Shown one piece after another: positions 30,366 through 58,034 of a stretch of 64,000 nt of DNA (position 1 is the first letter of the stretch; every line of letters begins with the position of its first letter). The notes below the pieces were generated by a model, which was not told where the DNA came from, searched no databases, and was given only the letters and a program-made list of their open reading frames with translations. Position numbers and translations under genes: made by a program. Location of the stretch: positions 1-64,000 of IMG/VR virus record IMGVR_UViG_3300032331_002067. One strand, given 5' to 3'. The stretch comes from a virus.

Positions 30366-30593
30366 TTTATTTCAAAAGGCTTGAGCTGCCAAAAAATGTA
30401 TACTAAAATTTGCTGAAAAGTAAATCTAAACAGTGGGGCGTTCAAACTTTATTAAATGATTTAATATCAACCATTCCCGATCCTTGATCGCCGGCTTTAA
30501 TAAACTATTTACAAAGAGCTTAACTATCACGATCTTCTCGATTTATTTTCTGGCGCACAATAAAAGTTTTTTCTAACATTTTCTTGGTGCATG

Positions 30594-30622
30594 TTTGATT
30601 TCATTATTTTTGACGATACACT
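30594..30622 (+). promoter_or_regulatory. Probable early promoter
   Basis: TTGATT-16-TACACT before the early-gene block. Confidence 0.4.
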
Positions 30623-30719
30623 TTGTTCATGGTTTGCGAATACTTTGAATATGAAATTTTATTCATTTGTTTATTCGTAACTATAAGTAAAAATAAATCA
30701 TTTATTATGGGAGGACTTT

Positions 30720-31262
30720 ATGTCTAATCTAAATACAAATCCAGAGCATAATGTAAAGTCAAAGTATGACCTTATTGTTGACCAATTGATGGGCATAGAA
30801 ATATCAGATAATGATAATGATTATGGTTACATTTGTGAAATTGTTGCTGTTGTTACAAATAGCGAAACTTATTACAAATGTATTACTAATCTTGGTAAAA
30901 CATTCAATGCTAATGTTATTCTTCACGCTTTGCGTCAAGTTAGAATGAATCAGAATGTAATTGATAACGAGAACCGTGACGATAATGTTGAAGTTCTCCC
31001 TGTTGGTTATCCTGATGGTACAGCTTATTCTAATGCTGTATTTGGTCCAAAGCGTAAGCGTAATCCAACTCCAATTATGAGCCAAGCTATTAATAATAAT
31101 GCTAAGTTTGACAATGGTGAAGTTATTAGTATTACTTCACATACATCAACAGGTGATAGATTTCCTGAAGAATACCGTAATATTGATCAAATTCTTACCC
31201 CAGAACAAATTGTAAACCTAGAAGAAAAGATTGCTACAAGCAAGGAGAATTCAAATGTCTAA
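30720..31262 (+). CDS. Hypothetical protein
   Basis: SD ggagg. Confidence 0.6.
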   Translation: MSNLNTNPEHNVKSKYDLIVDQLMGIEISDNDNDYGYICEIVAVVTNSETYYKCITNLGKTFNANVILHALRQVRMNQNVIDNENRDDNVEVLPVGYPDGTAYSNAVFGPKRKRNPTPIMSQAINNNAKFDNGEVISITSHTSTGDRFPEEYRNIDQILTPEQIVNLEEKIATSKENSNV

Positions 31263-31617
31263 TGAAAAAGTAAACCTCAACTCAATTCAAAATAAAATTG
31301 TATCTCGTGGTCGAAATGGAGGAAAAAAGAAAACAAAATCTCTTTTTGATACTCCATTAGAAAACAGAACTTATTGGGGAAATGATGACGGTAGTAAACT
31401 TAAAGTTTCACTTGCTCGTAATGCTATTCGTAAAGATATGAAATTCGGAATTCTTTTTGATGTAGATTATGATGACCTTACTCGTGTTCTAAATAAAGAG
31501 TATAAACAAGAACTAATCAAATTTCAACTCGAATTGATGAAAGATTTAGTAATGGATCGTGAAATTATGATTGTAGAAATAGACAATCATAAATGGCAAA
31601 TACAATGGTTAATCTAA
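31255..31617 (+). CDS. Small basic protein sharing the KVNLNSI..K.V.RG N-terminal motif with the 54380/55034 proteins
   Basis: SD aaggag; KVNLNSIQNKIVSRGR vs KVNLNSIKANLVKRGK. Confidence 0.65.
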   Translation: MSNEKVNLNSIQNKIVSRGRNGGKKKTKSLFDTPLENRTYWGNDDGSKLKVSLARNAIRKDMKFGILFDVDYDDLTRVLNKEYKQELIKFQLELMKDLVMDREIMIVEIDNHKWQIQWLI

Positions 31618-31648
31618 ATTAACCAATAAACAAAAACTAAACATTAGC

Positions 31649-31678
31649 AAGGCAATAGGTATTCCTATTGCCTTTTTT
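31649..31678 (+). terminator. Intrinsic terminator
   Basis: aaggcaatagg-tatt-cctattgcctt-T run. Confidence 0.85.
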
Positions 31679-31714
31679 GTGTTTAAAAACAAATAGAAAG
31701 AATGGTGATAACCA

Positions 31715-32116
31715 ATGTCTCAACAAAATACAAACTTAAAACCAAAGATAATTATGAATACTTATCTAAATCTAAACTACGTTCTTCGTAAACAACTAAG
31801 AAGAATCGAATCAGAAATCGAAAGATACTTTAATGATGAAGGACATTATTATGGTGATGGTTTGAATGAAGTATGCGATATTAGAGATTTAGTTATGACA
31901 GAAATTGATTCATTAGGCGAAAAGATAGAAAATCTTGCTTTTTGTACCAATATGTCAAATGAATCATTTGACCATCTGTTAGATAACTATGCTGTTGAAA
32001 TATTAGATGGAATACAAACATACAATCAAGTTGGTGAGTATCTAAGTGAATTTGATTACTCAGATATGAACGAATCCTTCTTGAAAGAATTCAGTAAGCT
32101 ATACGAAAAAGAATAA
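31715..32116 (+). CDS. Acidic hypothetical protein
   Basis: ORF in the early block. Confidence 0.55.
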   Translation: MSQQNTNLKPKIIMNTYLNLNYVLRKQLRRIESEIERYFNDEGHYYGDGLNEVCDIRDLVMTEIDSLGEKIENLAFCTNMSNESFDHLLDNYAVEILDGIQTYNQVGEYLSEFDYSDMNESFLKEFSKLYEKE

Positions 32117-32126
32117 GGAGAAAAAA

Positions 32127-32357
32127 ATGGCAATCTGTAAAATCTGCAATAATGAATTTATTGAAGAAAGATATGAAGCTGGTTATGATTATTGCTTAGA
32201 TGAAGTATGTAATCGAATTGGTTTAGATGAAAGAGAAAGAGAATTCCGGAAAGTTTATACTCCGGCATTATTGCATAAATGCAATTACTTTTGGATAAAG
32301 AAAAGCGAACTGCGAGACTTAAATGTTAGAGCAGACATGTTACAAACAGGAGATTAA
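32127..32357 (+). CDS. Zn-finger hypothetical protein
   Basis: CKIC..ER...GY.YC...C; SD aaggag. Confidence 0.6.
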   Translation: MAICKICNNEFIEERYEAGYDYCLDEVCNRIGLDEREREFRKVYTPALLHKCNYFWIKKSELRDLNVRADMLQTGD

Positions 32358-32360
32358 ACA

Positions 32361-32729
32361 ATGGATTATGAAGAATTTACAAATTATCAATTGTCAATAC
32401 ACCCCGATTTTGTTTCATATCAATTGAAGGAAGACGAAATTAAAGTTTTCCTTTCTGCTGATTATGGAGTTAATTCAAAATCTGGAAATAAAACAATTGG
32501 AAAAGAAATTGTTAAAACAATTAATTCTTTTCATATCAAAAAAGATAGAGAATGTTTTTATGCACAAAGAGTTAAAGACTCTGCAATTAAAAACCTTAGT
32601 CAAAACAAAAGAGTAGGCAGTGCAATAAAAATGGGCATTGCTTCTAACTATGTACATCAAATGATGTTGTATCAGATTAGAACATTTTTGTTTTTTAAAA
32701 AATTCCCTGAGTATTTGGAGGTCAAATAA
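32361..32729 (+). CDS. Hypothetical protein
   Basis: SD aggag. Confidence 0.55.
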   Translation: MDYEEFTNYQLSIHPDFVSYQLKEDEIKVFLSADYGVNSKSGNKTIGKEIVKTINSFHIKKDRECFYAQRVKDSAIKNLSQNKRVGSAIKMGIASNYVHQMMLYQIRTFLFFKKFPEYLEVK

Positions 32730-32986
32730 TGGAAATGGTTACAGTATGTCCTTGTTTTTCTTGTGGAAAACAAATTACTTATTTAACATTTGGAAAGAGT
32801 TCTTTAATGAGTCCAGAAGATGCAATTGAAGTTTTGATTGAAGGTGGTTATGGTTCTAAATTTGATCTTTCTCAAATGCTTATTTGGATTTGTGATGAAT
32901 GTATTCAACAAAAAATGAAAGAAAGAGTCTTTATGATTAATGAAGATATAACAAACGATTACACAATGGAGAATGAAAATGATTGA
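32729..32986 (+). CDS. Zn-finger hypothetical protein
   Basis: CFSC...GYGSKFD....ICDEC. Confidence 0.6.
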   Translation: MEMVTVCPCFSCGKQITYLTFGKSSLMSPEDAIEVLIEGGYGSKFDLSQMLIWICDECIQQKMKERVFMINEDITNDYTMENEND

Positions 32987-33260
32987 TGAAATCCCAGAGG
33001 AATACCTTATGAAAGATACTCCATACGCAACAAGAAATCAAAATGGTGTCGTTACCTTTTTTGATTCAGTAGAAGAAGCTATTGCTGATTTTATTGGATA
33101 TGAAGGATATCGATTAGATATTGAAGTTAATGGTGTAGTTGTTTTTATCTACAGAGATGAATTACCACTTATGTCAAAAGCTCAACCCGGATCTTTAGCA
33201 TATGATAATCCCTCAAAGAGGGTTTCATATGAAGCTAAAGTAATAGTAGAAAGAAAGTAA
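32973..33260 (+). CDS. Hypothetical protein
   Basis: Coupled ORF. Confidence 0.55.
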   Translation: MKMIDEIPEEYLMKDTPYATRNQNGVVTFFDSVEEAIADFIGYEGYRLDIEVNGVVVFIYRDELPLMSKAQPGSLAYDNPSKRVSYEAKVIVERK

Positions 33261-33261
33261 T

Positions 33262-33567
33262 ATGAACAATATTAAAAGAACAGATGAAGCAAACGCAAGT
33301 GGTACTTGTTTACAAGGCTATGTAATAGCCACATATGAAGAATTAGTGAAAACATTTGGTGAACCTGATTATGGACCTAATTCTGTTGATACAGATAAAA
33401 CAACTTGTGAATGGGTATTGGAGTATAACGAAAGTAAATACTGCACCATTTATGATTGGAAACTAGGAGAAACACCATTCTTTAAGTATGAGTGGCACAT
33501 TGGCGGAACTGAAAGCAAATGTGTAGAAGTATTGCAGAATGCTATTGAAGAAATGAGAAAGCAATAA
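33262..33567 (+). CDS. Conserved phage hypothetical protein
   Basis: GT.LQG...TY..LV..FGEP...DK...EW...TIYDWK...WHIGG. Confidence 0.65.
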   Translation: MNNIKRTDEANASGTCLQGYVIATYEELVKTFGEPDYGPNSVDTDKTTCEWVLEYNESKYCTIYDWKLGETPFFKYEWHIGGTESKCVEVLQNAIEEMRKQ

Positions 33568-33833
33568 TGAAAGACAAGCCCAAATATCAATGGATATTAC
33601 ATCATACTAGATCAACTGATAGAGTATTTTTTGGTCCATTTGAAAGCTATGAAGAACTTGATTTGTTTTATGGAACAATTGCAAGAGCAGAGCAAATTCA
33701 TTGCTCTGTTGAATTATTAATCAATCCATTTGTAGCATCATATGATGAATGGTGGTATAACCCATATGATGAGCTACAAAAGAAAAACCCCGAATTATTT
33801 AATAGAAAGAAAGAAGAAGCAAATGTCAACTGA
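33567..33833 (+). CDS. Hypothetical protein
   Basis: TAATG coupling. Confidence 0.55.
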   Translation: MKDKPKYQWILHHTRSTDRVFFGPFESYEELDLFYGTIARAEQIHCSVELLINPFVASYDEWWYNPYDELQKKNPELFNRKKEEANVN

Positions 33834-34110
33834 TATTTATGATTTTACAACTGAACACGAGAAAGCATTATTCTCAATTACAAAACACTGCTCTTGGTGT
33901 GGAAATTGGATTGTCATTAATATGACATATCGTCAACATGAAGCTTATGTTGAAAAAACAGCATATGTGCAAGATATCTTTCCGCATATTTCAAAAGAAG
34001 AGCGTGAAATGTTGATTAGTGGAACACATCCTAAATGCTGGAATGAAATGTTCGGAGATATTGATGAAGATGAAGAAGAGGAAATTGATTCTTATGCTGG
34101 AAATGAATGA
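33823..34110 (+). CDS. Conserved phage hypothetical protein
   Basis: C..CG...QD.FP.....RE.LISG.HP.CW; start reassigned. Confidence 0.6.
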   Translation: MSTDIYDFTTEHEKALFSITKHCSWCGNWIVINMTYRQHEAYVEKTAYVQDIFPHISKEEREMLISGTHPKCWNEMFGDIDEDEEEEIDSYAGNE

Positions 34111-34330
34111 GAAGCTTAGATTCATAGATGAATTTGAAATAAGCGTTCATAAAAAAATCTCTAATATGAAATTTGGAGAGTGCTTGTCAATTGAAACTGT
34201 TGCTAAAACAGAAGAAGAGAGAAAAGCGATCAGAAAAGCAATTGAAAAGTCAGCAAAATATAATTGCATGGTTTTAAGATTGCATTGGTTAAAAGATAAA
34301 AACATTGTTAAAGTAACACACGAAATATAA
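34103..34330 (+). CDS. Small basic protein, possible distant member of the 54-56 kb family
   Basis: MKFGECL...RKAI.KSAK....L.W pattern. Confidence 0.5.
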   Translation: MNEKLRFIDEFEISVHKKISNMKFGECLSIETVAKTEEERKAIRKAIEKSAKYNCMVLRLHWLKDKNIVKVTHEI

Positions 34331-34660
34331 AGGAAATTATGACCCCAGAAAACAAATTAGAAGAATACATTGAGAATCTTTGGTTAAAAGATGGCTTGAT
34401 TGTTTTTCCTAAACGAGAAGAAATTGAAGAAGATGACGAAAGCCTTGACTTGTCAATAAATATTGATTGGTTCTTATGGGAAAAGGAAATGCACTCATGA
34501 AGACATTTAATTATGAATGTAAATCTTGTGGTGAGTTATATCACGAAAAGACAGAGACTGGATATTGCGTAATTTGCGAAGGAAGTTTGGTTGAAGTCAA
34601 TTCACTTGATTATGACGAAGAATATGATAATGATAAAGATTGGAATGGAAGGTATATATA

Positions 34661-34984
34661 ATGAGAGAATATATGGAAATTGGCTCAACGCCATATGATG
34701 AGCCTTGTGCTCAAGTTGGTTCAGATGATTACAGAAATCGTGCTGAAAAAGAAATGGATACTTATGTAAGTCTATTGGAAAGGTTATTTCCAGAAGCTTC
34801 AAGTAAAAATATTAACTTCAAGAAAAAATGGTTTCAACATGATTTTGGAACATATGGTGAAGTTTGTATGTATTGGAATACAGAGGATGAAGAATCTGAT
34901 AGTTATGTTTATGAGATTGAAAAAAGATTACCAGAAAGCTGGGATAAAGTAGCAATGGAAGAGTTAGGAATAGTAAATGATTAA
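34661..34984 (+). CDS. Conserved phage hypothetical protein
   Basis: IG.TP..E.CAQVG...F.HDFGTY.EV. Confidence 0.6.
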   Translation: MREYMEIGSTPYDEPCAQVGSDDYRNRAEKEMDTYVSLLERLFPEASSKNINFKKKWFQHDFGTYGEVCMYWNTEDEESDSYVYEIEKRLPESWDKVAMEELGIVND

Positions 34985-35083
34985 GATATTTAGTTTTGCG
35001 ATTATATTTCTAATCGCAGTACCAACAGTATTGATTGGATTAGCAATGATGATTAGTGAATCAACCGATGAAAGGACATCGAA

Positions 35084-35635
35084 ATGAATAAGGAAAGAAT
35101 GTTACAACTAGCAGATTATATTGAAAATCTGCCGGAACACAAATTTGAAATGCAGTATTGGATTTCAAACAAGATAGAGCAAGGTACATTCAATAATAAA
35201 CCGTATTGGTCAATTGAGTCTTATCCCTTGTGGCATAGCAATCCAGAAACATTAGTAGAACCTTTAAATTGTGGTACTGCTTGCTGTATTGCTGGTTGGG
35301 CTGCTGCAATTGAAAATAATTTTAAACCAATTTCTCTTCTGCAAGATGGAAAATCAATTGAAGATAGAGCAGCAATATGGCTTGATCTAAATCAACAAGA
35401 GGCACATAATCTTTTCTTAATTGGTTTGGATAGTGTATGGGTTGATTATATTGCTAAAACCGATATTGAGCTTGATAATTATGAAGAGACTTTTACAAGT
35501 ATTACAAATAAAACAGCAGCATTAGTTATTAGAGACATTGCTAATGGAGTTATTGATATTGATAGAGAATATGATTCTGATGAATCTAGGGAGTATTTAG
35601 AAGAATTGGGGTACTTTGAAGATGATGAATTCTAA
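35084..35635 (+). CDS. Conserved phage hypothetical protein
   Basis: MN.ERL..LAD.IE...CGTACCIAGWA. Confidence 0.6.
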   Translation: MNKERMLQLADYIENLPEHKFEMQYWISNKIEQGTFNNKPYWSIESYPLWHSNPETLVEPLNCGTACCIAGWAAAIENNFKPISLLQDGKSIEDRAAIWLDLNQQEAHNLFLIGLDSVWVDYIAKTDIELDNYEETFTSITNKTAALVIRDIANGVIDIDREYDSDESREYLEELGYFEDDEF

Positions 35636-36329
35636 TGATATTTTTATTTATTCGGATAATCTTGTTCGTTGTGCAACTGATGCCTTAACTAAACCAGAAG
35701 ATTTTGGTTATTGGGGTCCAGAAGATACTTTTGTAACTTGGGGTTTTTGTGGAATTGATAAAACAAGAGATTCTAGTGTTATGGATATCTCAAACTTTGA
35801 AACAATTTCTCAAGAGCTAATGGATGATTATCCGGATGATTTTAGAATTGAAAACTATAGCCATTGGGCTTGTGGTTCAATTGACCGTTTGATTTGTCGT
35901 ATTCTAAAGCGAGAAACCAATGTTGAGTTAGACAATATTACAGATGCTTTTAAAAAAGCTATGATTTGTAAAGATAAACTTGGTGCTTACCCTGTTTATG
36001 ATGAAGAGGATTATCACAATAGATTATATAAGGAAGCAATTGGTTGTCTTTATGATTTGCCAGATTATCTAGAAAATATGATCGACACTAATGTTCCAAA
36101 TTATGGTGAAGATATCTACTATGAATTGACAGCAAATATGAACATTGAATTCGATGTAGATGGTGAACAATATCCAAAGGATGATGATATTAAGTATGCC
36201 GTTTATAGTTTGCAATATTGGAACGATGAAGCAACTGAAGAATGGAATGAATGGACAGACCAAAACGGTATGGAAAGAATTTCTACAAGAAAGAAAAACC
36301 CTAATCAATTAAAACTATTTGAGGATTAA
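35622..36329 (+). CDS. Acidic phage hypothetical protein
   Basis: RDS....SNF...HWA.G....YPV.DEED. Confidence 0.6.
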   Translation: MMNSNDIFIYSDNLVRCATDALTKPEDFGYWGPEDTFVTWGFCGIDKTRDSSVMDISNFETISQELMDDYPDDFRIENYSHWACGSIDRLICRILKRETNVELDNITDAFKKAMICKDKLGAYPVYDEEDYHNRLYKEAIGCLYDLPDYLENMIDTNVPNYGEDIYYELTANMNIEFDVDGEQYPKDDDIKYAVYSLQYWNDEATEEWNEWTDQNGMERISTRKKNPNQLKLFED

Positions 36330-36535
36330 TGAACGAAATACAAACAAAAGAAGTAAGAACGGAATTACACCGTGTCTTAGAAAATATGGATATACCAAAG
36401 ATGAGGTTTGATGATTTGGGTTGGCTAACCCGGAACATTGGAATTAATAATTCAAATCATCCAAACTTTATCCTAGCAACTTGGTTAATAGAAAAGCTTA
36501 AGGAGAGCAAAAATGAACAAGTGTCCTCAATGTAG
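36329..36535 (+). CDS. Hypothetical protein
   Basis: TAATG coupling. Confidence 0.5.
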   Translation: MNEIQTKEVRTELHRVLENMDIPKMRFDDLGWLTRNIGINNSNHPNFILATWLIEKLKESKNEQVSSM

Positions 36536-37053: not shown

Positions 37054-37261
37054 ACATAGAATCTTAGCGCATACTAAAATTCACCAAAAAATAAAGATAA
37101 ACAAACGGGCGTAAGCCTAAAAGGAAAGATAATGGAAAATCAAAACACTGCACTATTTAGTGCATCAATGGTATTGACAGCATATGTCGATGAAAATGGA
37201 AATGTTAAATATGTAAAGTCATCTTGGGATGAACTTTTCGAAAAAGAGAAAGAAGAAGAAA

Positions 37262-37840
37262 ATGCCTAACTGGTGTATGAACACATTAGAAATACAAGGT
37301 CCAATTGAAGATGTGGATAAATTCATGGAAAAGATTAAATCTGTTGAACCAGATAAACTTAGTCTTTTCAATGCACTTATCCCAATGCCAACTGAATATA
37401 TTGGTGAACCTGCAAGTATGACCAAAGAAGAAAAAGATTGGTCAGATACTGAAAAGCTTTGCTTTGAAAAGTATGGTCATAAAGATTGGTATGGATGGTC
37501 TATTGCTAACTGGGGAGTTAAATGGGATATTAGCGATGGTTATATTTCAGATGAAACTCTTGTTACTAAATATAACATTGATAAACAAGCAACCGAAGAA
37601 ACAGGTGAGAAACTTGTAATAATGCAATACTCAACTCCTTGGGCACCCGGAGATGAAAGTTTAGCTGAAGCTTTTTGCAGAGATGAATACAAATCACTTT
37701 CTTTTCATATTTATTATGAAGAAGGTGGAATGGGATTTCACGGTGCTTTGACAGTACATAAAGGTGAAATTGTATATCAGGAATCTGATGATATGAGTAC
37801 TATAAGAAAATGTCTAGAAGATTCTCTAGACTGGATTTAA
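37262..37840 (+). CDS. DUF1281/YubB ferredoxin-like protein
   Basis: MPNWC.N.L.I.G, WY.W...NWG.KWD, TPW.P, Y.E.G..F.G. Confidence 0.75.
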   Translation: MPNWCMNTLEIQGPIEDVDKFMEKIKSVEPDKLSLFNALIPMPTEYIGEPASMTKEEKDWSDTEKLCFEKYGHKDWYGWSIANWGVKWDISDGYISDETLVTKYNIDKQATEETGEKLVIMQYSTPWAPGDESLAEAFCRDEYKSLSFHIYYEEGGMGFHGALTVHKGEIVYQESDDMSTIRKCLEDSLDWI

Positions 37841-37871
37841 CAACAAAACAACAATAAAAGGAAAAATAATA

Positions 37872-39162: not shown

Positions 39163-39519
39163 ATGTCAACAATTACAATTAATTGGTTAGATGAAGCTGC
39201 TTGTTTAGGTCAAGGAACAGATTTGTTTTATACAGACACTGTTTATACATCAGAAACAAAGAAGATTATTGCCAAAGCTAAAACATTTTGTAATAGTTGT
39301 CCGGTAGTTGCTGATTGCTTACAATATGCAATTAATAATGAAGAAAGGTTTGGGGTTTGGGGTTCTTTTTCATCAAAAGAAAGAGCATCAATCCGAAACC
39401 ATTTGAAAACCAATGACATTACAAAAGATCAAGCAAAGGCAATGGTTAATAAAACAGTATTGCAAGTAAAAGAAACATTCAAAAATACAATATTTGTGGA
39501 GGGTGATAATGCCCGATGA
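39163..39519 (+). CDS. whiB: WhiB-family transcription factor (second copy)
   Basis: W...AAC....LF...AK.FCNSCPVVADCL.YA....GVWG.....ER. Confidence 0.9.
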   Translation: MSTITINWLDEAACLGQGTDLFYTDTVYTSETKKIIAKAKTFCNSCPVVADCLQYAINNEERFGVWGSFSSKERASIRNHLKTNDITKDQAKAMVNKTVLQVKETFKNTIFVEGDNAR

Positions 39520-40648: not shown

Positions 40649-42334
40649 ATGTTAAAAGATTATATCGTAATCTCAAATAAAGCTGAAACCGTAAGTCGTA
40701 TCTCTTTAGAAAAGCTAGGTTTTTCTACTAAGAGAAATGACGCTAAGACTATTGGTCAATTTGGCTCTGGAATTAAATATGCACCAATTGCTGCACTAAG
40801 GAATGGACTTGAATGGTTCTTTACCGGAAATGATAACAATGGTCCATTCACTCTTGAATACATTGTTCAAGAAGAAGATGGAGTTGAGTGTATTGCTTAT
40901 AAGTATGGAGATCAAATTAAATCATCTTCTTTTACTCTTGAAGCAGGAGTAATGTCTTGGGAAGACCCATTCCAAATTTTACGCGAACCTATTGCTAATG
41001 CAATGGATGGAGCAACAGTAAATGAAGATGGATGGTATAACATTTTTGTTATTACTGTTGATACAGATGACCCAGAATCAATGAAAAAGCTTGAACCTCG
41101 TGAAGGTGTATTCTCTGTTTATATCACAGCATCTCCTAATCTAATGAAGGTTGTTAATAATTATGATGCATACTTCTCTGTAAAGCGTGAAGTATTGTTT
41201 GATAATCATTTTGGTAAACTTCTCGATAAGTTTGATAACACATCTCGATTTTATACATTAAATGTTCTTGTAAAACATGATGAAACAAGTAATTCCATTT
41301 TCGATTACCAATTCGATAGTCTTGAACTAAATGAAGAGCGAAGTGTTAAATCATTATGGGATCTTGACTACAATGTATCCAAAATGATTTGCAGTGTTAC
41401 TAATCCAGATATTGCTGAAGAATATATCTCTGAGTTTGTAGGGGCTAAAGCAGAGGATAGTGGTATTTGGGAACTAAATCGTTTGGCTAGTCAAAACTTC
41501 AAATATCACGGAAGCGATGTTTCTCACGAAGTTTGGCAGAAAACTTGGAATAATCTTTATACAGAAAAAGCTGTGATGCTTAATGGTGATCAGAATTCAG
41601 ATTCTCTTCGTTTGGCTGTTATTAGTCGTGGATATCAACCAATTGTTGTAGCTAATAAAACAGCTTACAATATTTTATCATCAATGGAAATCAAATCTCT
41701 TTTTGACATCTTGGGTGAACAAGTTGATTATGAAATTGATGACGATATTAGTGGATATCCTCGTTTGCTTGAAGCAATTGAAATTGCATCATCTTTTGAG
41801 ACCGGAATCATTCCCCTACAGAATGAAATTGGCGTGTTTGAAAGTAAAAAAGAAGGTGTAATGGGAATGTGCGTGAGTATTGGTGATAACAAAAAGCGTA
41901 TTGTCATTGAGAAATATCACGCCAAGAATGGAACAATTCAGGAACTTGTTGGCACACTGATTCATGAATTTGATCATTACAGCACTAATGTTGGTGATTC
42001 AGCCGATATGATTGGCAGAGAATTTAGGAATATTGCAGACACAAGAATTGGTGGATTGATGGTTGAACATTACAAGCAAAATATCCTCGAAAAGAAGTTT
42101 GGTGGTGCTTATATTGCAATCAGTAAAATGTCTTCAATGTCTAACCTAAACTACAGTTCAGAGTATTCTGAAATTCTTGGTAAAACAATCCTTGGTATTG
42201 GAGGATTGAGTTTCATTATTGAATGTAGCAAATCAGCGATTGAAAAATCAGGAACTTGTTTTGTTGATAATACAGGTAAATATCTGTATGTTCCTATTAA
42301 CGGAGAATTCGAAATCATAAAGGAGATTTTGTAA
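40649..42334 (+). CDS. GHKL-type ATPase (permuted motif order) fused to a C-terminal HExxH metallopeptidase-like domain
   Basis: LG.STK...IGQFGSGIK precedes REPIANAMD; LIHEFDH near the C-terminus. Confidence 0.7.
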   Translation: MLKDYIVISNKAETVSRISLEKLGFSTKRNDAKTIGQFGSGIKYAPIAALRNGLEWFFTGNDNNGPFTLEYIVQEEDGVECIAYKYGDQIKSSSFTLEAGVMSWEDPFQILREPIANAMDGATVNEDGWYNIFVITVDTDDPESMKKLEPREGVFSVYITASPNLMKVVNNYDAYFSVKREVLFDNHFGKLLDKFDNTSRFYTLNVLVKHDETSNSIFDYQFDSLELNEERSVKSLWDLDYNVSKMICSVTNPDIAEEYISEFVGAKAEDSGIWELNRLASQNFKYHGSDVSHEVWQKTWNNLYTEKAVMLNGDQNSDSLRLAVISRGYQPIVVANKTAYNILSSMEIKSLFDILGEQVDYEIDDDISGYPRLLEAIEIASSFETGIIPLQNEIGVFESKKEGVMGMCVSIGDNKKRIVIEKYHAKNGTIQELVGTLIHEFDHYSTNVGDSADMIGREFRNIADTRIGGLMVEHYKQNILEKKFGGAYIAISKMSSMSNLNYSSEYSEILGKTILGIGGLSFIIECSKSAIEKSGTCFVDNTGKYLYVPINGEFEIIKEIL

Positions 42335-45473: not shown

Positions 45474-45529
45474 AAGAGATTAAGTATAGGTCGTTATTGG
45501 ATATTCCTTCCTATACTTAATCTCTTTTT
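45474..45529 (+). terminator. Long-stem terminator after tRNA
   Basis: aagagattaagtatagg...cctatacttaatctctt-ttt. Confidence 0.75.
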
Positions 45530-45633
45530 CTATACCCAAAAACAAGTAAAGAAAGGCATAAAGATTTGAGCGCATACTCAATTTATCCAAAAAGTAAACC
45601 TAAACAAGATGGCGTAAAGCTAAAAGGAAAAAA

Positions 45634-46050
45634 ATGACGAACAATCATATTAAAAGAAAACAGTTTATAGAAGCTGCTCAAAAGTTATGTAATCCAATTG
45701 TGGAATTGACTATTGCTTGGCAAGAGTTATCTAGTGAAGATAATGGAGAGACATCAATTGATTATCCATTTATTGGATCTTTTGATGAATGGGTTTATTC
45801 TTACAATGAATGGCTAGATAAGTTAGAAGAGAAGTTCTCGATAAAAACAGATGATTTCAAACCAACAATTACGGTTAAAGATTTGAAAACAATTTTGGAT
45901 AAATTAGATGATGACATTCAGATAGTTATACGAGATGAAAAATCAGATTGGTGGTTGAACATTGAATCACTTGAATTACCAGATGAAGATAATGGAAGCT
46001 TCACACTTACATTTAATCCAAAAGACAATTTTGATAACAGACAATTCTAA
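45634..46050 (+). CDS. Hypothetical protein
   Basis: SD aagga. Confidence 0.55.
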   Translation: MTNNHIKRKQFIEAAQKLCNPIVELTIAWQELSSEDNGETSIDYPFIGSFDEWVYSYNEWLDKLEEKFSIKTDDFKPTITVKDLKTILDKLDDDIQIVIRDEKSDWWLNIESLELPDEDNGSFTLTFNPKDNFDNRQF

Positions 46051-51229: not shown

Positions 51230-51997
51230 TGGCGGGTAAGAAACCAGCTAAAGTTAATTCAGCTACACAGAAAGAAAAGGTAACGATACAGCCCGGAAAA
51301 GCTGTAAAGTATCTTAGTTTAGTAAAAGGTGCAAATCCTTTCGTCTGTCCTACTTGTAATCGTAATCTATTTAAAGGGATTCTTTATGAGCACGATAATA
51401 AGACATACTGCAAGCGTACCTGTATCCCAAAAGTGGAGGCATAGTAATGAATTTAGGAAGCCTTAGTATCTTTAGAAACTCTCTTCAAATCAGAGAGTTT
51501 GCTAGAGGATATATTGCAGCAATGCCATTACAAAACAAATACCAAGATGAATATGATGAATGGCATGCATTCTCTGATGATATCGATATTAACTTCTATG
51601 TTATAGATGGATACATTAGGGCAACGGCTTATAAAGTCATTGATTCAATGATAGATACAGATCAAGAAGAATTGATCTACGAAGAAAAACTACTACTCAA
51701 ACAACTAATCAAGAAAGAAACCTATAAATGAGTAAAACAAAGAACCTAAAGACAACGACAGAATTTCCATGTGGTCAAATGATTACAACAGTCAGAACCA
51801 TGACTGATAAAGAAATGTTGGAAGAAGGTTGGGAGCGTAGGCATTATGAAAGCGTGAACCCAACTTGTTTTGTATTATCTGATGGATCTATTCTTTATCC
51901 TTCTTGTGATGAAGAAGGTAACGGACCGGGAATGTTTTTTGGAATAGTTGATGGAAGCCATATTGCTATCTCTTTAACAGAGAAAATTAGCTCATAA
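51229..51997 (+). other. Three small hypothetical genes (51229 Zn-finger, 51447, 51728)
   Basis: Coupled ORFs with SD sites. Confidence 0.55.
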
Positions 51998-52052
51998 AGT
52001 TGAGATTAATTGTCCTAATACAATAGGATAATTGTCATAAGGATTATATAAA

Positions 52053-52091
52053 GAAAGGAGGGGTATGCGTAAATCGTGTACCTCTCCTTTT
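52053..52091 (+). terminator. Stem-loop terminator
   Basis: aaaggaggggtatgcg-taaat-cgtgtacctctccttt-t. Confidence 0.6.
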
Positions 52092-52223
52092 ATAATCCAT
52101 TACAGAGCCTCTGAGTGGGCTATGAAGTAAAGCTGGAAGGAGCTTTAATGAGGATATTAATTCAATACGGACTCATAGGATTAGCTATGTTTCTAATTTA
52201 TACATTTGTCAAAGGAGACTGAC

Positions 52224-53296
52224 ATGAAGAAAAATCCAATGGTGAAGGTAAAACTAAGCCGATTAGATCTCGAAATCTTAGGCGAAGCCTTAGTTGAATC
52301 AGAGAGGGTTGTTCACATACTTGGTGATGAAGAATATATCGCTAGGTATAACCATATTGCCGATGTGATAGCTGACCGAATGGTAAATCTTTATAAAAAG
52401 AGAGAAAAAGCCAAAAAGCGTAGATTCCGGTATCAGAAAGTAAGGTTTGGACTATGGGGCTAGTTATGGAATGGAAAATGACAAAAGACTACAAAATAGA
52501 TAGGGATGTATCAACATCAATTGAACAGATTGAGTTTGTACATAGCCTAATCCAAGAGCTAGAGAATAAAGGGGTCGAATTGCCGATGGGTGATTACAAC
52601 CTTATTTATGACTATATTGAGGGGGCTAGAGATATCCTTATGGAATACGAAGAAACAATGGATTTCGAGGAGGAATCATGACTTATTACGAATGTGAAGA
52701 ATGCAGCAGAACGCTGTCTATAGAAGAAATAAATTATGGGCACGATTGTGAGCCAAAAGAGGAAAGTGGAGTTATTTATGACCCAAGCAAAAGAAGCTAT
52801 TAATATGACCCATAGTCATTATTGGAAATGTACGGATATTCCGGGCTATTTCTTATGTGAATGTGGGGCTATGTCCAGACACAATAGAGAAACCGGATCA
52901 AAAGAGATTTGGAGCCTTGAATCGGAAGGTGGCGAAATATGATACTAATAGACTTTCTATGTCTTATCCTGCTATATACGATTCACCGTTTGGTAGCCCA
53001 AAAGCCAAATGATGCCTTTGGGAATATGATGTTCTTAATCCTTGCGGGGTTCGGGTTCCTATTCTTATTCCTAGATGTAATTGAAAAGATAAAGGGATTG
53101 TTCTGAGATGATAAAGAAGAAGATTGATCCAAGTGATCGGCGGGAATATTTCTATGGAGAAAGTGTACATGAATATATCGGGGTTCTTGTAGAGATGATT
53201 CTAAAGATAGAAGAGTCTAAAGAGATAGGGAATCTAGATAAGGATCGTATAAGAGTTCTATTAACTGATTCTATTTCTATTCTGAACGAGTATTAA
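52224..53296 (+). other. Last small hypothetical genes of the + early block (about 52224, 52466, 52805, 53108)
   Basis: ORF track with start reassignments. Confidence 0.45.
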
Positions 53297-53330
53297 CACA
53301 CAGGTATATACACATATCTGTGGATTACAT

Positions 53331-53339
53331 TGTGGATAA
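53331..53339 (-). promoter_or_regulatory. DnaA box (perfect TTATCCACA); second perfect copy at 53584-53592, near-matches at 53306 and 53319
   Basis: tgtggataa on +. Confidence 0.65.
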
Positions 53340-53432
53340 GCTACCCGTATAGATACCGTATAGTAGCAATCATGTAGTAAGCGCTCAACATGGCGCAAAT
53401 ATATACTAATTAGTAGTTAGTAACATAGCAAT

Positions 53433-53479
53433 TAAAAGCCTTAGAGGTAAGTTAAATCTTATCTTTAGGGCTTTTTTTT
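53433..53479 (+). terminator. Terminator ending the + early block
   Basis: aaaagccttagaggtaag...cttatctttagggc-T8. Confidence 0.75.
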
Positions 53480-53563
53480 GTGCCTAAAATCAGCATAAAG
53501 TAAAGAATAATCGATAAAAAACGATCAAAACATAGCAAAAACATACTATTTTGTATCAAAACA

Positions 53564-53579
53564 TCGAACATTTGTTCGT
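53564..53579. promoter_or_regulatory. LexA/SOS box of Gram-positive/actinobacterial type
   Basis: TCGAAC-ATTT-GTTCGT vs consensus TCGAAC-N4-GTTCGA. Confidence 0.65.
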
Positions 53580-54268
53580 ATGTTGTGGATAACTTCGGAT
53601 ATGTACTAAAATTAAAGGTAAAGTTAAAGAAAAACAGCCTACATTAGAGAGCTGAATGCGTATTCGCCGGCTTTGTTCTATCTATAGCTATCTCTATCCC
53701 TATATATAAGCTAGAAGACTATCTAACCCGGAACTTTGCGGGAAAGCTCATAATTTGAGAATGTATAAGTGCCCCTTACCCTATATATATCCCTAGCTAT
53801 AAAGTAAATAAGAATATTTGAAGGTATTTACCCCGATAGTTAATGTATTAGAGAATGAGGTAGAGAATGTGATAGTAGATATCCCAAATGCCGGCGATAA
53901 TAATGTGAAAGTTACGGGCTTGTAATTTGAGTCATATATTCACCTATATATGTACAGATATACCTAGGGGAATAGATAAACCAATAGCCCCGTCTTATTC
54001 CTCAGACCCCATAATTTGAAAGGGATACTGATCCCTTACCCTTATCTTAAATTGAAATAGAAATTTAAACTTAATAAAAGAAAGATTCATCATGATTAGT
54101 AAATTCATTAAATTAATGAGAAAATTAAAGTTAAATTTAATTGGTGTCCAAAACGCTGAAGCGTTTATGGTACCCCAACCATAATTTGAAAGTTAAGGTG
54201 GTCCCTTACCGTATAGGTATCGTTTGGAGAATGTATTAAATTAATAAGAAAGATAAAGGTAAACGAAA

Positions 54269-54343
54269 CTGGTGTTCAAGTGCTTTAGCACGCCCAGAAC
54301 ACCAGCGATTTTGGGCAAAAAAAAACCACGCCTTTCGGCGTGG
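54269..54343. repeat. Hairpin element type A plus minus-strand terminator (copy 1)
   Basis: ctggtgttc-aagtgctttagcac-gccca-gaacaccag, then cgattttgggc-A9-ccacgcc/ggcgtgg. Confidence 0.8.
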
Positions 54344-54379
54344 AAAAAACTTTCGTTTATTTTTTCGGTTTCACTTTCG

Positions 54380-54730
54380 CTAAGCGTTCGCCTTGCGAGA
54401 GATAACCATTCTGCCATCGTCAAGCCAGTTGATTTGGATTGCAATCCCCAACTTTTCCGAAACACTTTCGGCACGATTTCGGTATTTCATCTTTTCGGCT
54501 TGAATCTTCGTTGAATCTTGGTTGAGATTCACCGTTGCTTCAGACCAAACGAATGCGTCACCGATTTCGTTGGGGTCTAATGACAGAATGTCTGTCGCCA
54601 ATACAGGGTTTTCGTATGGGGGTTTCCCACGCTTGACCAACTTGGATTGGATTTCGGAAAGGTTTACCTTTTGGTTTGCCTTTTTGGGTTTGTCGCCTGC
54701 GTTATCGCTCGGCATGGTTGTTGTAGCCAC
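54380..54730 (-). CDS. Small putative DNA-binding protein, paralogue 1 (leaderless GTG)
   Basis: KRGKPPYENPVLATDILSLDP..GDAF.WSEATVNL..KMKYRNRA; GTG 6 nt after the -10. Confidence 0.75.
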   Translation of the reverse strand: MATTTMPSDNAGDKPKKANQKVNLSEIQSKLVKRGKPPYENPVLATDILSLDPNEIGDAFVWSEATVNLNQDSTKIQAEKMKYRNRAESVSEKLGIAIQINWLDDGRMVISRKANA

Positions 54731-54736
54731 ATCTAC

Positions 54737-54768
54737 ATAATACGAATGGGCTTGGGTTATGTATTCAA
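54737..54768 (-). promoter_or_regulatory. Cassette promoter P1
   Basis: TTGAATACA...TATTAT, 32 bp; same geometry in six copies. Confidence 0.7.
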
Positions 54769-54793
54769 TAATCGTAAATAATAGACCCAGAAC

Positions 54794-54835
54794 GGCGGGC
54801 GCACGAAGTTCGCTGAAGCTCTCCGCACGCCCGTC
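54794..54835. repeat. Hairpin element type B (copy 1)
   Basis: ggcgggcg...gctgaagc...cgca-cgcccgtc. Confidence 0.7.
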
Positions 54836-54926
54836 ATGATTTGAATGGTAATTTGAATCCTTACGGAGATCCTTACCATGATTTGAAAATGTGAATGAAA
54901 TTTTACTCATAGCTACACCGGTAGAA

Positions 54927-55002
54927 GCTGGCGTTCAAGTGCTTTAGCACGACCCGAACGCCAGCGATTTTGGGCAAAAAAAAACTCGCCCCGAGGGGCG
55001 AG
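54927..55002. repeat. Hairpin element type A plus minus-strand terminator (copy 2)
   Basis: gctggcgttc/gaacgccagc, with a compensatory change relative to copy 1. Confidence 0.8.
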
Positions 55003-55033
55003 CCAAAAAAACTTTTTTTGTGTGGGGGGGATG

Positions 55034-55366
55034 TTACTGAGGAGTACCGAGGGAGATAATCATTTTTCCGTCATCCTGCCAGTTGATAGCGATGGTTACG
55101 CCACACTTCTCAGCAACGCTGAGGGCACGATTACGGTACTTCATTTTCTCTGCTTGTACCTTGTCCTGTGGTGCTGTGAGGTTCACAGTCGCTTCCGACC
55201 AGTAGAAGGCATCGCCCTCAACTGTTGGGTCAAGACTGAGAATGTCAGTAGCGAGCACTGGGTTCTCATAGGGGGGCTTGCCTCGCTTCACCAAGTTAGC
55301 CTTGATGCTGTTGAGGTTCACCTTTTTGTTTGGTTCCGCTTTGCGGTCACCTGTGTTATTTGCCAC
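55034..55366 (-). CDS. Small putative DNA-binding protein, paralogue 2 (leaderless GTG)
   Basis: Highly similar to the 54380-54730 protein. Confidence 0.8.
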   Translation of the reverse strand: MANNTGDRKAEPNKKVNLNSIKANLVKRGKPPYENPVLATDILSLDPTVEGDAFYWSEATVNLTAPQDKVQAEKMKYRNRALSVAEKCGVTIAINWQDDGKMIISLGTPQ

Positions 55367-55372
55367 GAGATA

Positions 55373-55589
55373 ACTATACCTATGGGGTTCACCTGTGTAT
55401 CCAATACCTACTAAATACTCTCATAGATTAGACCCAAACTGGCTGGTGCTTAAAAGAGCTGAAGCTCTTCCGCACACCAGACCATCTTGTGTATAGAGAG
55501 AGCGCATACTCAATCTCTCTGACTGTCCGTCTGGGTCGGCTTGGCGTTAGGCACAAAAAAAGGGAGAGAGCCGAAGCCCTCTCCCTTTT
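55373..55589. repeat. Inter-cassette element: promoter P2 (55373-55404), hairpin B (55443-55480), GCGCATACTCAA box, terminator (55555-55589)
   Basis: Aligns with three following copies; UUCG-loop terminator on the minus strand. Confidence 0.8.
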
Positions 55590-55608
55590 CGTCAGCCCGC
55601 AAGTGATT

Positions 55609-55881
55609 CTAGCGGTTTGCTTTGCTTACTACTGGACTTGACTTTGCGCCGACTGTCCATGAGATGGACACGGGCTTACCAAGCCTCATAGAGATGGTAT
55701 GTATGCGGTTGCGATACTTCATCTTTTGAGTGTGATTGCTCTGAGTGACACGAATATCACTCAAGACAATCTCATCAGTTGTCTTTTTGAGAAGGCGTAG
55801 AGCCTGCTCAATGTTTGCGTCAGAGAATGGGGGTCGCCCACGCTTGACGATTGTTGCTGTACCTTTAGGCTGAACTTTCAT
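55609..55881 (-). CDS. Small basic putative DNA-binding protein, paralogue 3
   Basis: IVKRGRPPF...KMKYRNRI...LG..V.ISW; SD gtagga before ATG 55881. Confidence 0.75.
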   Translation of the reverse strand: MKVQPKGTATIVKRGRPPFSDANIEQALRLLKKTTDEIVLSDIRVTQSNHTQKMKYRNRIHTISMRLGKPVSISWTVGAKSSPVVSKANR

Positions 55882-55930
55882 GATTCCTACTTTCGTTGGG
55901 TTTAGGTTCACCGTTGGGCTGACATCTATA

Positions 55931-56134
55931 ACTATACCTATGGGTTGAATATATGTATTCAATATGAGAATATATAGACCCTAGATTCGCTGGCGTTTAA
56001 GAAGTCTGAAGCCCTCTCGCACACCAGCTCGCTTAGGTAGGAAGAGAATGTGTACTCAATTCCAATGGATCGCCTGTCCGGGTCGGAGTGGTGTTAGACA
56101 AAAAAAAGAGGGGGTCTTGCGACCCCCCCTCTTT
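55931..56134. repeat. Inter-cassette element: P3, hairpin B (55989-56028), box, terminator
   Basis: Alignment with the other copies. Confidence 0.8.
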
Positions 56135-56147
56135 CGGAGTGTGTGAC

Positions 56148-56543
56148 CTAGGCGAAGGCTAGGAACTCAACGATTGCCTGTGAGTAAAGGTGACCCTCCA
56201 CTTGCATATTCTCACCCAACAATGCCTCAACCGCTTTCACGGCTGGTAGCAATGTTTCCTGAATGGTGAACAATGTCTCGTAGTAGGTAGCCTTCGTGAC
56301 TGTCTCGCTATCGTCACGGGTCACTGTTCTAATGACTGTCTGAGTAGCGTCTAGGAGTGTCTCACCCGTTGAGCGGGCTTGTTCTAGGAAGAACATATGA
56401 GTATCTCCTGACATATGGTCAGACTGAATCATGACCTTTATAAATGCCTTAGTGAATATCTCCACGAAGGTGTTGAGTGTGCTTGCGAACACATTCAGAC
56501 TAAGTATCTGAAGTGGCTCGCAGGGTTCAAGTAGTGGTTCCAA
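56148..56543 (-). CDS. Hypothetical helical protein (cassette 4)
   Basis: SD gaaagg then TTG; bounded by promoter and terminator. Confidence 0.6.
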   Translation of the reverse strand: MEPLLEPCEPLQILSLNVFASTLNTFVEIFTKAFIKVMIQSDHMSGDTHMFFLEQARSTGETLLDATQTVIRTVTRDDSETVTKATYYETLFTIQETLLPAVKAVEALLGENMQVEGHLYSQAIVEFLAFA

Positions 56544-56587
56544 TGTTACCTTTCCGCAGTTCATTTGTTCACTGCTTCCATACACCT

Positions 56588-56811
56588 ATATTACTATCGG
56601 GTTTAGAATATGTATTCAATATCGGGATATACCTAGACCCACATTGGTTGGTGCTAAAGGAAGCTTAAGCCTCCTCGCACACCAAACGAACATCGGTACG
56701 GGAAGACGATCAGTGTAGAGAGAACGCATACTCAACTCTATAGACTGTCCGTACCGAATGGATTGGAGTAGAGACAAAAAAAAGAACCGTACTGGCTGTA
56801 CGGTTCTCTTT
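56588..56811. repeat. Inter-cassette element: P4, hairpin B (56648-56685), box, terminator
   Basis: Alignment with the other copies. Confidence 0.8.
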
Positions 56812-56820
56812 CTTGGGGGT

Positions 56821-57033
56821 CTAATCGTTTGGTCGGTATGTCTCGTACCCATAGGGGTCGTAGATAGTGGTCGTGGTCTCGCAAGGGTAGTGAAACTCTT
56901 GGCAGTCGGGGATACCCTTTCCCCCCCTCTCACCGATAATGAAGCAGGCGATAAGTATCGCATACGCAAGGCTCACCCAAAAGATGAACCTCACGAATGA
57001 GCGAATACGGTAGTAGGTAGGTGAGTGCCCCAT
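56821..57033 (-). CDS. Small membrane protein (cassette 5, gene 2)
   Basis: TAATG-coupled; FVRFIFWVSLAYAILIACFII TM helix. Confidence 0.6.
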   Translation of the reverse strand: MGHSPTYYRIRSFVRFIFWVSLAYAILIACFIIGERGGKGIPDCQEFHYPCETTTTIYDPYGYETYRPND

Positions 57034-57296
57034 TACAAGCACCTCGGGCACTTGCAGGGGGCAGGCTCGCAACACTCAGTAGCGTTGGTCAGTATCTCAA
57101 ACTTACGCAACCCTTTGAGGATTGCGGGGTTGAGGTAAAGGTTCTCTGTCCAACCTTCGTACTGAGCCTCACACATTGCCTTGCAAGCCTCATAGATAGA
57201 GAACTCATTAGGGTGAGTTCGTAGTGTCCAATACATGTCCCAGTTCTTAGGGAACTGGGTTGCCTCTGCGATAGCAGTCAGCGGGTTTATTCCCAT
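57033..57296 (-). CDS. Hypothetical protein with Cys-rich C-terminus (cassette 5, leaderless ATG)
   Basis: ATG 6 nt after TATAGT; CCEPAPCKCPRC. Confidence 0.6.
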   Translation of the reverse strand: MGINPLTAIAEATQFPKNWDMYWTLRTHPNEFSIYEACKAMCEAQYEGWTENLYLNPAILKGLRKFEILTNATECCEPAPCKCPRCL

Positions 57297-57302
57297 ACAC
57301 AC

Positions 57303-57530
57303 ACTATACCTATGAGGTTAGAATGTGTATACAAAATGAGAGAATACCTACCCCCTTACACGCTGGTGTTTAAGAAGGCTTAAGCCTTCCCGCACTCCAG
57401 CGATTCTAGATCTATCACCGTTCCCCTGAGAGGTCGTGTATAGAGAGAGCGCATACTCAACCCTATGGGCTGTCCGCCTCGGTAGGAATGGTGTTAGGCA
57501 AAAAAAAGAGCCAGCCCGAAGGCTGGCTCT
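57303..57530. repeat. Inter-cassette element: P5, hairpin B (57361-57402), box, terminator
   Basis: Alignment with the other copies. Confidence 0.8.
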
Positions 57531-57555
57531 CTCTCTTGGGGGATTGTTGGGGGTC

Positions 57556-57888
57556 TTAGTAGTTGCGACCATTCGCATCGGTTACCTTGTAGCCCGACTT
57601 GACGAGCAAGGCAATGGCTAGGTCGGCATCGCTTGATACTCGCTCACGAATAGGTGACTTTACCTCGTAGCCTGCCATGAGTAATTCGTTCATTGCGCTT
57701 TCTACGATAGCCTCACGAGCCTTTATGTGGAGTTTGCTTGCTGTCTTGACCATGTAGGCGAGTTGGTCGTCAAACATTTTGGCGTATGCTACGGAGAACT
57801 TTACGCCCTCGCTTGCGACTTCCATGTTGCGTAGTTGAACGCAAGCCTCCTTGAAGGCTTCTTGTATAAGGTTAGTATCGTGTGACAT
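57556..57888 (-). CDS. Hypothetical protein (cassette 6)
   Basis: SD gaaagga; internal repeat A..LL..GY.V. Confidence 0.65.
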   Translation of the reverse strand: MSHDTNLIQEAFKEACVQLRNMEVASEGVKFSVAYAKMFDDQLAYMVKTASKLHIKAREAIVESAMNELLMAGYEVKSPIRERVSSDADLAIALLVKSGYKVTDANGRNY

Positions 57889-57938
57889 GGATTCCTTTCT
57901 CGCCCGTCAGTTGTTCGGGGCGTTGCTTCCATGTCATA

Positions 57939-58034
57939 ACTATACCTATGGGCTGAAAATGTGTATTCAATCTAGGGAATAAACAAACCCCTACCCTGCG
58001 GGCGTAAAGCGAAGCTGAAGCTTAGCACGCCCGC
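57939..58034. repeat. Promoter P6 plus hairpin B (57998-58034)
   Basis: TTGAATACA...TATAGT; gcgggcg...aagctgaagctt..gca-cgcccgc. Confidence 0.75.

Follow-up and report, generated by a model that had tools for sequence, protein, structure and literature searches.

A two-part motif of fixed spacing and single orientation in the genome of a phage with a probable actinobacterial host

To characterize a recurrent two-part motif, we analysed the first 64 kb (positions 1 to 64,000, here called the window) of a 100,001-bp IMG/VR virus record, IMGVR_UViG_3300032331_002067, which is rated 96% complete. The motif consists of a box of 10–13 bases followed 29–30 bases later by GGYGT, and all copies lie on one strand. 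Genes of the + strand fill the window from 0 to 53.3 kb. They are followed by a zone without genes (53.3–54.2 kb), by six minus-strand cassettes (54.2–58.0 kb) and, beyond the cassettes, by further minus-strand genes that extend to 67.5 kb in the full record. The G+C content of the cassettes is 45–49%, against 32–35% in the adjacent small-gene block. Streptomyces phages, among them Coruscant and NootNoot, have a DnaE-type polymerase and a large terminase with about 37–41% identity to those encoded here. A DNA similarity search against 50,697 phage records returned tRNA-Asn as its single match, and Rfam at its gathering score found nothing beyond two tRNAs. IMG/VR holds 380 related contigs. Because the genome carries two WhiB-family genes (39184–39390 and 11391–11573) and several leaderless cassette genes, with a start codon 5–6 nucleotides (nt) past a TAnnnT hexamer, the sequence indicates that the host is an actinobacterium.

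A preliminary description of the window had listed 13 copies of the motif, and all 13 were found where it had placed them. The strict form YGYRTAYTMAA-N29/30-GGYGY is matched by seven copies, all on the + strand (30397, 37068, 45571, 55503, 56049, 57450 and 57960), while the other six deviate in the first three letters of the box or in one letter of the second element (GGAGT at 56765). We found two further copies. At 54891–54900 a degenerate box is followed after 29 nt by GGCGT at 54930, and at 55406–55415 the box ACCTACTAAA is followed after 29 nt by GGTGC at 55445, which makes it the true partner in cassette 2. A slightly relaxed pattern, RYRTAYTMAA-N28-31-GGYGY, has 11 exact matches on the + strand and none on the minus strand of the 100-kb genome; 60 block shuffles put the chance expectation for the two strands combined at 0.08. 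If one mismatch is tolerated, the counts rise to 18 and 1, compared with 3.9 expected. The motif thus exceeds background, the first of two checks that had been set beforehand. Its single orientation, also claimed earlier, is borne out both by these counts and in relatives, as described below.

The distance from the box to GGYGY was tabulated for 251 distinct boxes from this genome and its relatives. It is 28 nt in 7 boxes, 29 nt in 47 and 30 nt in 19 (73 of 251 altogether), and each of the remaining distances between 0 and 75 nt occurs 0–3 times, so that the tolerance is limited to 28–31 nt. No clear variants offset by a helical turn were seen: four boxes have a GGYGY at 38–40 nt, and one of these is accounted for by a second box. 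The second check, that the spacing should be kept in relatives, is answered by this peak at 28–30 nt. The spacer had been described as always 29–30 nt long despite changes in its sequence; the sharp peak at these lengths agrees with that.

Among 17 larger related contigs that were scanned, 14 carry the motif, 1–13 times each. It occupies one strand only in 13 of these 14, the exception (G009) having one match per strand. A reversed-pattern control on the same contigs gave 0–1 matches per strand per contig and five in total. We also examined 80 loci around related terminase genes, in which GGYGY follows the box at 29 nt in 19 cases, at 30 nt in four and at 28 nt in three; when the loci were oriented by the terminase gene, every spacing-matched copy lay on the terminase strand. 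The site corresponding to the first copy in the window, about 1.6 kb past the terminase gene, is kept in relatives with 76–99% terminase identity, and in relatives down to 76% identity its 29-nt spacer has been almost wholly rewritten. Since the site is kept while the spacer between its two parts is replaced, this indicates that the box–GGYGY spacing is under selection and not merely inherited. Streptomyces phage Coruscant, whose terminase is about 41% identical and which is one of the closest cultured relatives, does not carry the motif.

Four copies in the window stand alone (30397, 37068, 45571 and 54230). As first described, they are intergenic, lie 6.7–8.7 kb apart and have A-rich spacers. 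Lone copies point in the same direction as the genes that follow, and their spacers contain TAAA about 18 nt past the box and 4–7 nt before the G of the second element; over 11 non-redundant lone sites, A exceeds 90% at −13, −9 and −8 relative to that G. Lone copy 1 (30397–30441, +) has the box TGTATACTAAA, a 29-nt spacer that includes TAAAC, and GGCGT, and heads the block of small + strand genes. Between it and the first gene of this block lies a non-coding leader of about 280 nt (30441–30720) with an ATTAAAT/ATTTAAT palindrome, which is kept in close relatives. Lone copy 2 (37068–37112, +) has a box, 29 nt and a GGCGT that begins the mini-hairpin GGC-GTAA-GCC, followed by a Shine-Dalgarno (SD) sequence and an ATG at 37132. 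Lone copy 3 (45571–45615, +) likewise has a box, 29 nt, GGCGT, an SD sequence and an ATG, here at 45634. In both, GGC-GTAA-GCC or a variant of it precedes the SD sequence, and the ATG lies 20–24 nt past the G. Orthologues of lone copy 2 (in L107) and of lone copy 3 (in L008, L022 and L068) were identified, and orthologues preserve a mini-hairpin of the GGC-GUAA-GCC type (GNRA type) starting at the G, with changes that maintain pairing, including a G.U pair in the + sense. Lone copy 3 is preceded by a long hairpin with a T-run (45476–45530, +) that lies after tRNA-Arg and ends 40 nt 5' of the copy; we took it for a terminator by eye, and the terminator scan did not list it. The fourth lone copy, module B0 (54230–54306, +), lies at the edge of the cassette array. 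It has the box AATGTATTAAA, a 30-nt A-rich spacer and a GGTGT that opens a hairpin (54268–54306), and it faces the terminator of the first cassette gene. Downstream of lone copy 2, a 45-codon open reading frame (ORF) with a good SD sequence (37132–37269) overlaps a 203-codon ORF in a different frame (37229–37840) by 41 nt; these could be two genes or a frameshift site.

The remaining copies belong to the cassettes, two to each, as the preliminary description had stated. Each cassette spacer is built of two modules, A, which adjoins the start of the left-hand gene, and B, which adjoins the terminator of the right-hand gene. In module A of all six cassettes, the reverse complement of the box (TTGAAT, or TTGGAT in A2) lies exactly 20 nt from a TAnnnT hexamer. 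On the other side, 29–30 nt separate the box from GGYGY, which opens an imperfect hairpin of 35–45 nt whose outer stem begins 3 nt earlier. Module B runs from the box through 29–30 nt to GGYGT, then to a near-perfect hairpin or a short remnant of one (TAGGCA), and ends in an A-run and a minus-strand terminator stem. The earlier claim that the box overlaps the −35 region of the cassettes therefore holds for the gene-proximal copies, with their TTGAAT, 20 nt and TAnnnT, and does not hold for the others.

The modules, all on the + strand, alternate with the minus-strand genes as follows. Gene c1 (54380–54718) belongs to a paralogue family that is present in every related array. It is followed by module A1 (54758–54835), in which 29 nt lie between the box and a hairpin-opening GGCGC and 20 nt between its complement TTGAAT and the c1 −10, TATTAT, and by module B1 (54891–54967), with the degenerate box GTGAATGAAA, 29 nt, a hairpin-opening GGCGT, an A-run and the terminator of c2. 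Gene c2 (55034–55366), of the same family, begins with a GTG 6 nt past TATAGT. In module A2 (55393–55481) the two roles of the box are split between two copies 12 nt apart: GTGTATCCAA, with the complement TTGGAT, lies 20 nt from TATAGT, while the box at 55406–55415 lies 29 nt from GGTGC at 55445 and its hairpin. Because cassette 2 divides the two spacings between separate boxes in this way, the link between box and GGYGY is a constraint independent of the cassette's own promoter. Module B2 (55503–55547) comprises CGCATACTCAA, 29 nt containing CTGTCCG, GGCGT, TAGGCA, an A-run and the terminator of c3 (55609–55884), a divergent paralogue. Further along, module A3 (55952–56028) has a box, 29 nt and a GGCGT that opens a hairpin, and B3 (56049–56094) a box, 30 nt, GGTGT, an A-run and a terminator. 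The next pair consists of A4 (56609–56686; box, 30 nt, GGTGC opening a hairpin) and B4 (56725–56769; box, 29 nt and the off-consensus GGAGT), followed by A5 (57324–57401; box GTGTATACAA, 30 nt, GGTGT opening a hairpin) and B5 (57450–57494; box, 29 nt, GGTGT, A-run, terminator). Module A6 (57960–58034; box, 30 nt, GGCGT opening a hairpin) forms the head of the minus-strand array.

Two side observations concern the boxes of the array. The terminator-side box sits in the loop of a short stem, AGAGAGA/TCTCTCT or variants of it (55462–55552, 56684–56776 and 57400–57500). This stem is enclosed by longer stems that are cassette-specific in sequence and still pair (for example CGGTACGG/CCGTACCG), with similar energies on both strands. 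In addition, a box-only copy without a second element, ATATACTCAA, lies at 58099–58108 (+) and has a counterpart at the same array boundary in G006. Such a copy (ATATACTCAAATTTT, without GGYGT) marks the upstream array boundary in two phages, at 58099–58108 in the window and at 7702–7711 in L186. The copy in G006 has the complement TTGAGT, 17 nt and TACTTT, and so has the appearance of an ordinary promoter that reads the minus strand from the array head.

The proteins encoded by the cassettes matched no Pfam or PHROG family. Relatives of c1–c3 occur in all arrays (two to three copies in each of L185–L188, at least one in L189 and two in L191), always opposing the motif, while c4–c6 are confined to this genome, so that cassette content varies among relatives. 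A structural model of the c1–c3 family was confident (pLDDT 87) and had no clear structural or DNA-binding relative: the best Z score was 5.4, matches in the PDB were weak and mixed, and Foldseek gave no hit.

The opposition of motif and cassette genes recurs in relatives. The motif runs against the minus-strand cassette genes in all seven related arrays examined (L185–L189, L191 and G000), and the same layout, with the motif on one strand and the cassette genes and their terminators on the other, is found in G003, G004, G006, G008, G013 and G016. In three of the five copies in G013 and in one copy in G012, the box is followed by 18 nt, TAATAT or TAATGT, 6–8 nt and the G. Judged by sequence, all elements of a sigma-A layout are present here on the strand that carries the motif, yet they face the 3' ends of minus-strand genes. 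Arrays of the G013 type hold terminator-side copies only.

We propose that the motif represents a class of factor-dependent, phage-specific promoters that is read on the + strand by the host RNA polymerase with a putative phage factor, a proposal to which we give slightly less than even odds (roughly 45%). The box is asymmetric, with a core RTAYTMAA that extends to about 13 nt, and would stand in for the −35 element. Transcription would start close to the first G of GGYGT, at most a few bases away, and the transcript would open with a stem-loop. Lone copies would launch the + strand operons of the small-gene block at 30–53 kb. The cassette modules would fire back into the cassettes and produce transcripts antisense to the minus-strand genes. 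As the gene-proximal box also covers the cassette's own −35, a bound box could shut the cassettes and switch the + strand units on. In sigma-70-type promoters the end of the −35 hexamer is separated from +1 by 17–18 + 6 + 6 nt, and the 29–30 nt between box and G match this distance if the G is assumed to be the start site. We favour promoter geometry over a two-site protein that loops the DNA because helical-turn variants are essentially absent, and we regard a + strand promoter as the best single reading because of the layout in G013 and G012, the spacing geometry and the lone copies. The conserved site past the terminase gene, the single orientation, the split roles in cassette 2 and the recurrence of the layout in related arrays speak for it as well. 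What the sequences establish is the motif itself, with its spacing, orientation, conservation and placement among the genes, whereas the start site, the factor and the switch are inferred. The preliminary description had suggested a two-part signal, possibly for early-gene control. The rigid spacing kept in relatives fits that suggestion, and it is the looping of two protein-bound sites that the geometry makes less attractive.

Several observations weigh against the promoter proposal. No −10 signal was detected in 61 non-redundant cassette copies; a −10-like signal is missing between the box and the G in most cassette copies of this genome and of G003, G004 and G006, and the TAAA of lone copies mostly lacks a T at −7. 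The box is unlike a sigma-A −35 element, the hexamer at the position of TTGACA on the + strand being ACTMAA or ATTCAA, and the outer stem of the hairpin starts 3 nt ahead of the G. A sigma region 2 search of the genome revealed no recognisable phage sigma factor, and MotA and AsiA (PF09114, PF09010) were not found in the 100 kb. A T7-type RNA polymerase was not found either, which is a weak blank, since T7-family control genomes gave no match in the same search. With no such sigma factor, polymerase, MotA or AsiA, and with poor −10 and −35 elements, the proposal therefore needs a phage factor. Candidates are the two WhiB-like proteins and the c1–c3 family; WhiB proteins are known to bind region 4 of sigma-A. 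A weak match to a sigma-70 region-4-like helix-turn-helix was seen at 26380–26457, within an ORF (26266–26892, +) located just 5' of the large terminase gene. This ORF is 28% identical to a Coruscant gene annotated as ‘putative RNA polymerase sigma factor’, and PHROG assigns it no function. We did not count it as a sigma factor: where it lies and how large it is point to a small terminase subunit, and the annotation in Coruscant may be wrong.

The lack of a −10 leaves room for a serious rival, if a rather doubtful one, in which the motif is a two-site operator. A phage DNA-binding protein, for which the small c1–c3 paralogue family would be the candidate, would bind two sites in duplex DNA, the box and the GGYGT at the foot of the hairpin, and repress or organise neighbouring promoters in either direction, with no + strand starts at the cassette copies. 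This would explain why box and spacing are strictly conserved where a −10 is absent. An asymmetric box of 10–13 nt is typical of a transcription factor, the box occupies the −35 position of a promoter both in lone copies (+) and in gene-proximal cassette copies (−), and the c1–c3 family is present in arrays L185–L189 and L191. However, the terminator-proximal copies are 100–130 nt from the nearest promoter, the helical-turn variants that loop-forming proteins usually tolerate are absent, the c1–c3 model has no clear DNA-binding relative, and the single orientation across opposite gene blocks would be left without an explanation.

The hairpins bear on a further alternative. We folded both strands of 68 non-redundant copies and found that the gene-proximal hairpins are 6–12 kcal/mol more stable as minus-sense RNA (Wilcoxon p = 0.002), because A.C mismatches on the + strand turn into G.U pairs on the minus strand. 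When the fold was made on purines and pyrimidines, treating both wobble types alike, 94 minus-type and 48 plus-type wobbles were counted. Terminator-side hairpins showed no significant strand bias. The gene-proximal hairpins were thus probably selected in the sense of the cassette genes, and an attenuator of read-through resembling those of PeSL cassettes would fit them. Such a bias would be unexpected if the hairpins were only the 5' stems of + strand RNAs, and it counts as a further point against the promoter proposal.

The same G.U pairs would suit a cassette scaffold read in the minus sense, in which the unit on the gene strand is an insulating hairpin (a read-through attenuator), 29 nt, a −35, 20 nt and a −10, and in which the terminator-proximal and lone copies are relics or spares spread by recombination between cassettes, as with PeSLs. 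All six gene-proximal copies do show a −35, 20 nt and TAnnnT, then a start codon 5–6 nt on or an SD-led start, and gene content differs among relatives (c4–c6 occur only here). PeSLs likewise join a promoter to a stem-loop (PMC2839356). Nevertheless, we think this scaffold improbable: it accounts for just 6 of about 15 copies here, the lone copies are conserved at orthologous sites before + strand genes with spacers rewritten and spacing kept, the box linked to the hairpin in cassette 2 is not the −35, and G013-type arrays hold only terminator-side copies. Moreover, we know of no mechanism by which a hairpin would be held 29 nt ahead of a −35. Least probable is a directional signal acting at the level of DNA (a site-specific nick, a pause in ejection or entry, a priming site or a recombination site), which would account for one orientation whatever the gene direction and for imperfect hairpins that fold better on one strand, but the copies fall at gene starts and have the geometry of promoters, and searches in which control genomes matched found neither an integrase/tyrosine recombinase (PF00589) nor a Y1 HUH transposase (PF01797) in the genome, nor was any other nicking enzyme recognisable. 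Nothing in the sequence thus supports the nicking, staged ejection or recombination suggested earlier.

Other assignments were tried and set aside. A scan for consensus sigma-70 promoters found sites no more numerous than in shuffled sequence. The box was rejected as a −10 because, where an invariant A is required, it has A or C (in another register, R). As a palindromic operator its left half-site stands at inconsistent distances (N6, N8, N10) or is missing, and for an extracytoplasmic function (ECF)-type −35/−10 pair the spacing is far too long.

We compared the signal with known systems. Lambda nut sites and the boxA/boxB elements of rrn operons pair a linear box with a hairpin at a defined distance, stand at the start of terminator-containing operons and act in RNA on the transcribed strand. 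The present motif is similar in its pairing and placement. However, in the cassettes it is found on the strand that opposes the genes, and for this reason a single RNA reading cannot serve both lone and cassette copies. In T4 middle promoters, the −35 gives way to an asymmetric phage-specific box of about 10 nt whose distance to the start is constant; transcription relies on the host polymerase, and promoters of this class serve many transcription units (PMC2988021), all of which is similar to what we propose here. These promoters need an excellent −10 (PMC2988021), which most cassette copies do not have. In addition, the box described here lies upstream of the T4 position by about 5 nt, the presumed start is marked by a conserved GGYGT with a hairpin, many copies point against the adjacent genes, and homologues of MotA and AsiA were not found in this genome.

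PeSL cassettes of T4-type phages consist of repeated promoter and stem-loop modules, set in a plastic region on either side of small variable genes (Arbiol et al., 2010; PMC2839356). They resemble the present cassettes in that gene content differs between relatives, and shuffling at the repeats is matched here by c4–c6, found only in this genome. The cassettes carry a −10 and terminators on the gene strand, and the motif points the other way. PeSL promoters have the host consensus and point at the gene, and the position of their stem-loop varies among five subclasses (PMC2839356), whereas here the spacing is fixed at 29–30 nt, the box does not look like a host element and the module is directed away from the adjoining gene. 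The stoperators of Cluster A mycobacteriophages are asymmetric sites of about 13 bp with many intergenic copies and an orientation rule, one of them overlapping a −35, and they follow the direction of transcription in each genome arm (PMC9283540). In contrast, our motif has a single genomic orientation and opposes the cassette genes in each of the seven arrays examined. Stoperators also lack a second element at fixed spacing, and this phage has no recognisable integrase. The signal therefore differs in at least one defining feature from each of T4 middle promoters, PeSLs and stoperators.

The opposed layout raises a more specific idea, which we consider unlikely as a whole: a single box could serve two opposed promoters. 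Leftward, its complement TTGAAT would be the −35 of host-type, often leaderless early promoters of the cassettes. Rightward, it would be the upstream element of a factor-dependent promoter without a −10, starting at the foot of the palindrome and firing into the cassettes. This would constitute a built-in flip switch from early to middle expression with antisense shut-off, conserved in a large group of actinophages. Its factor may act on region 4 of sigma-A, with the phage WhiB proteins or the c1–c3 family as candidates. If the opposed arrangement is such a switch, it would offer a compact means of silencing early cassettes and activating the next gene class, by a recognition system unlike MotA/AsiA of T4. 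To our knowledge, almost nothing is known about how phages of these abundant, mostly uncultured actinobacteria time their gene expression. The motif is a conserved and easily recognised signal that marks transcription units and early/middle regions in hundreds of metagenomic contigs, and it provides a concrete DNA target for finding the responsible protein.

Some minor features were also noted. A 561-aa protein of the early block (40649–42334, +) matched no Pfam family; its N-terminal GQFGSGIKYA, judged by eye, presumably recalls the glycine-rich ATP lid of GHKL ATPases. In G013 (L191), positions 1380–3520 hold many palindromes of 10–12 bp, TGTAA-N2-4-TTACA, and in G011 (L192) their place is taken by TAACGTTAG; both are lineage-specific. 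One copy of such a palindrome coincides precisely with the −10 position in the stretch from box to GGYGT, which looks as though the site of a lineage-specific regulator had been inserted into a common promoter frame. Finally, a second repeated motif, CATAATTTGA(R)A, often followed about 14 nt on by CCCTTACC, occurs at 53740–54200 and 54835–54890 of the window and also around the motif copies of L190 (G012). In several places it directly touches the box (CATAATTTGAGAATGTATTAAA in L186), and it fills the gene-free zone that separates the + strand block from the array.

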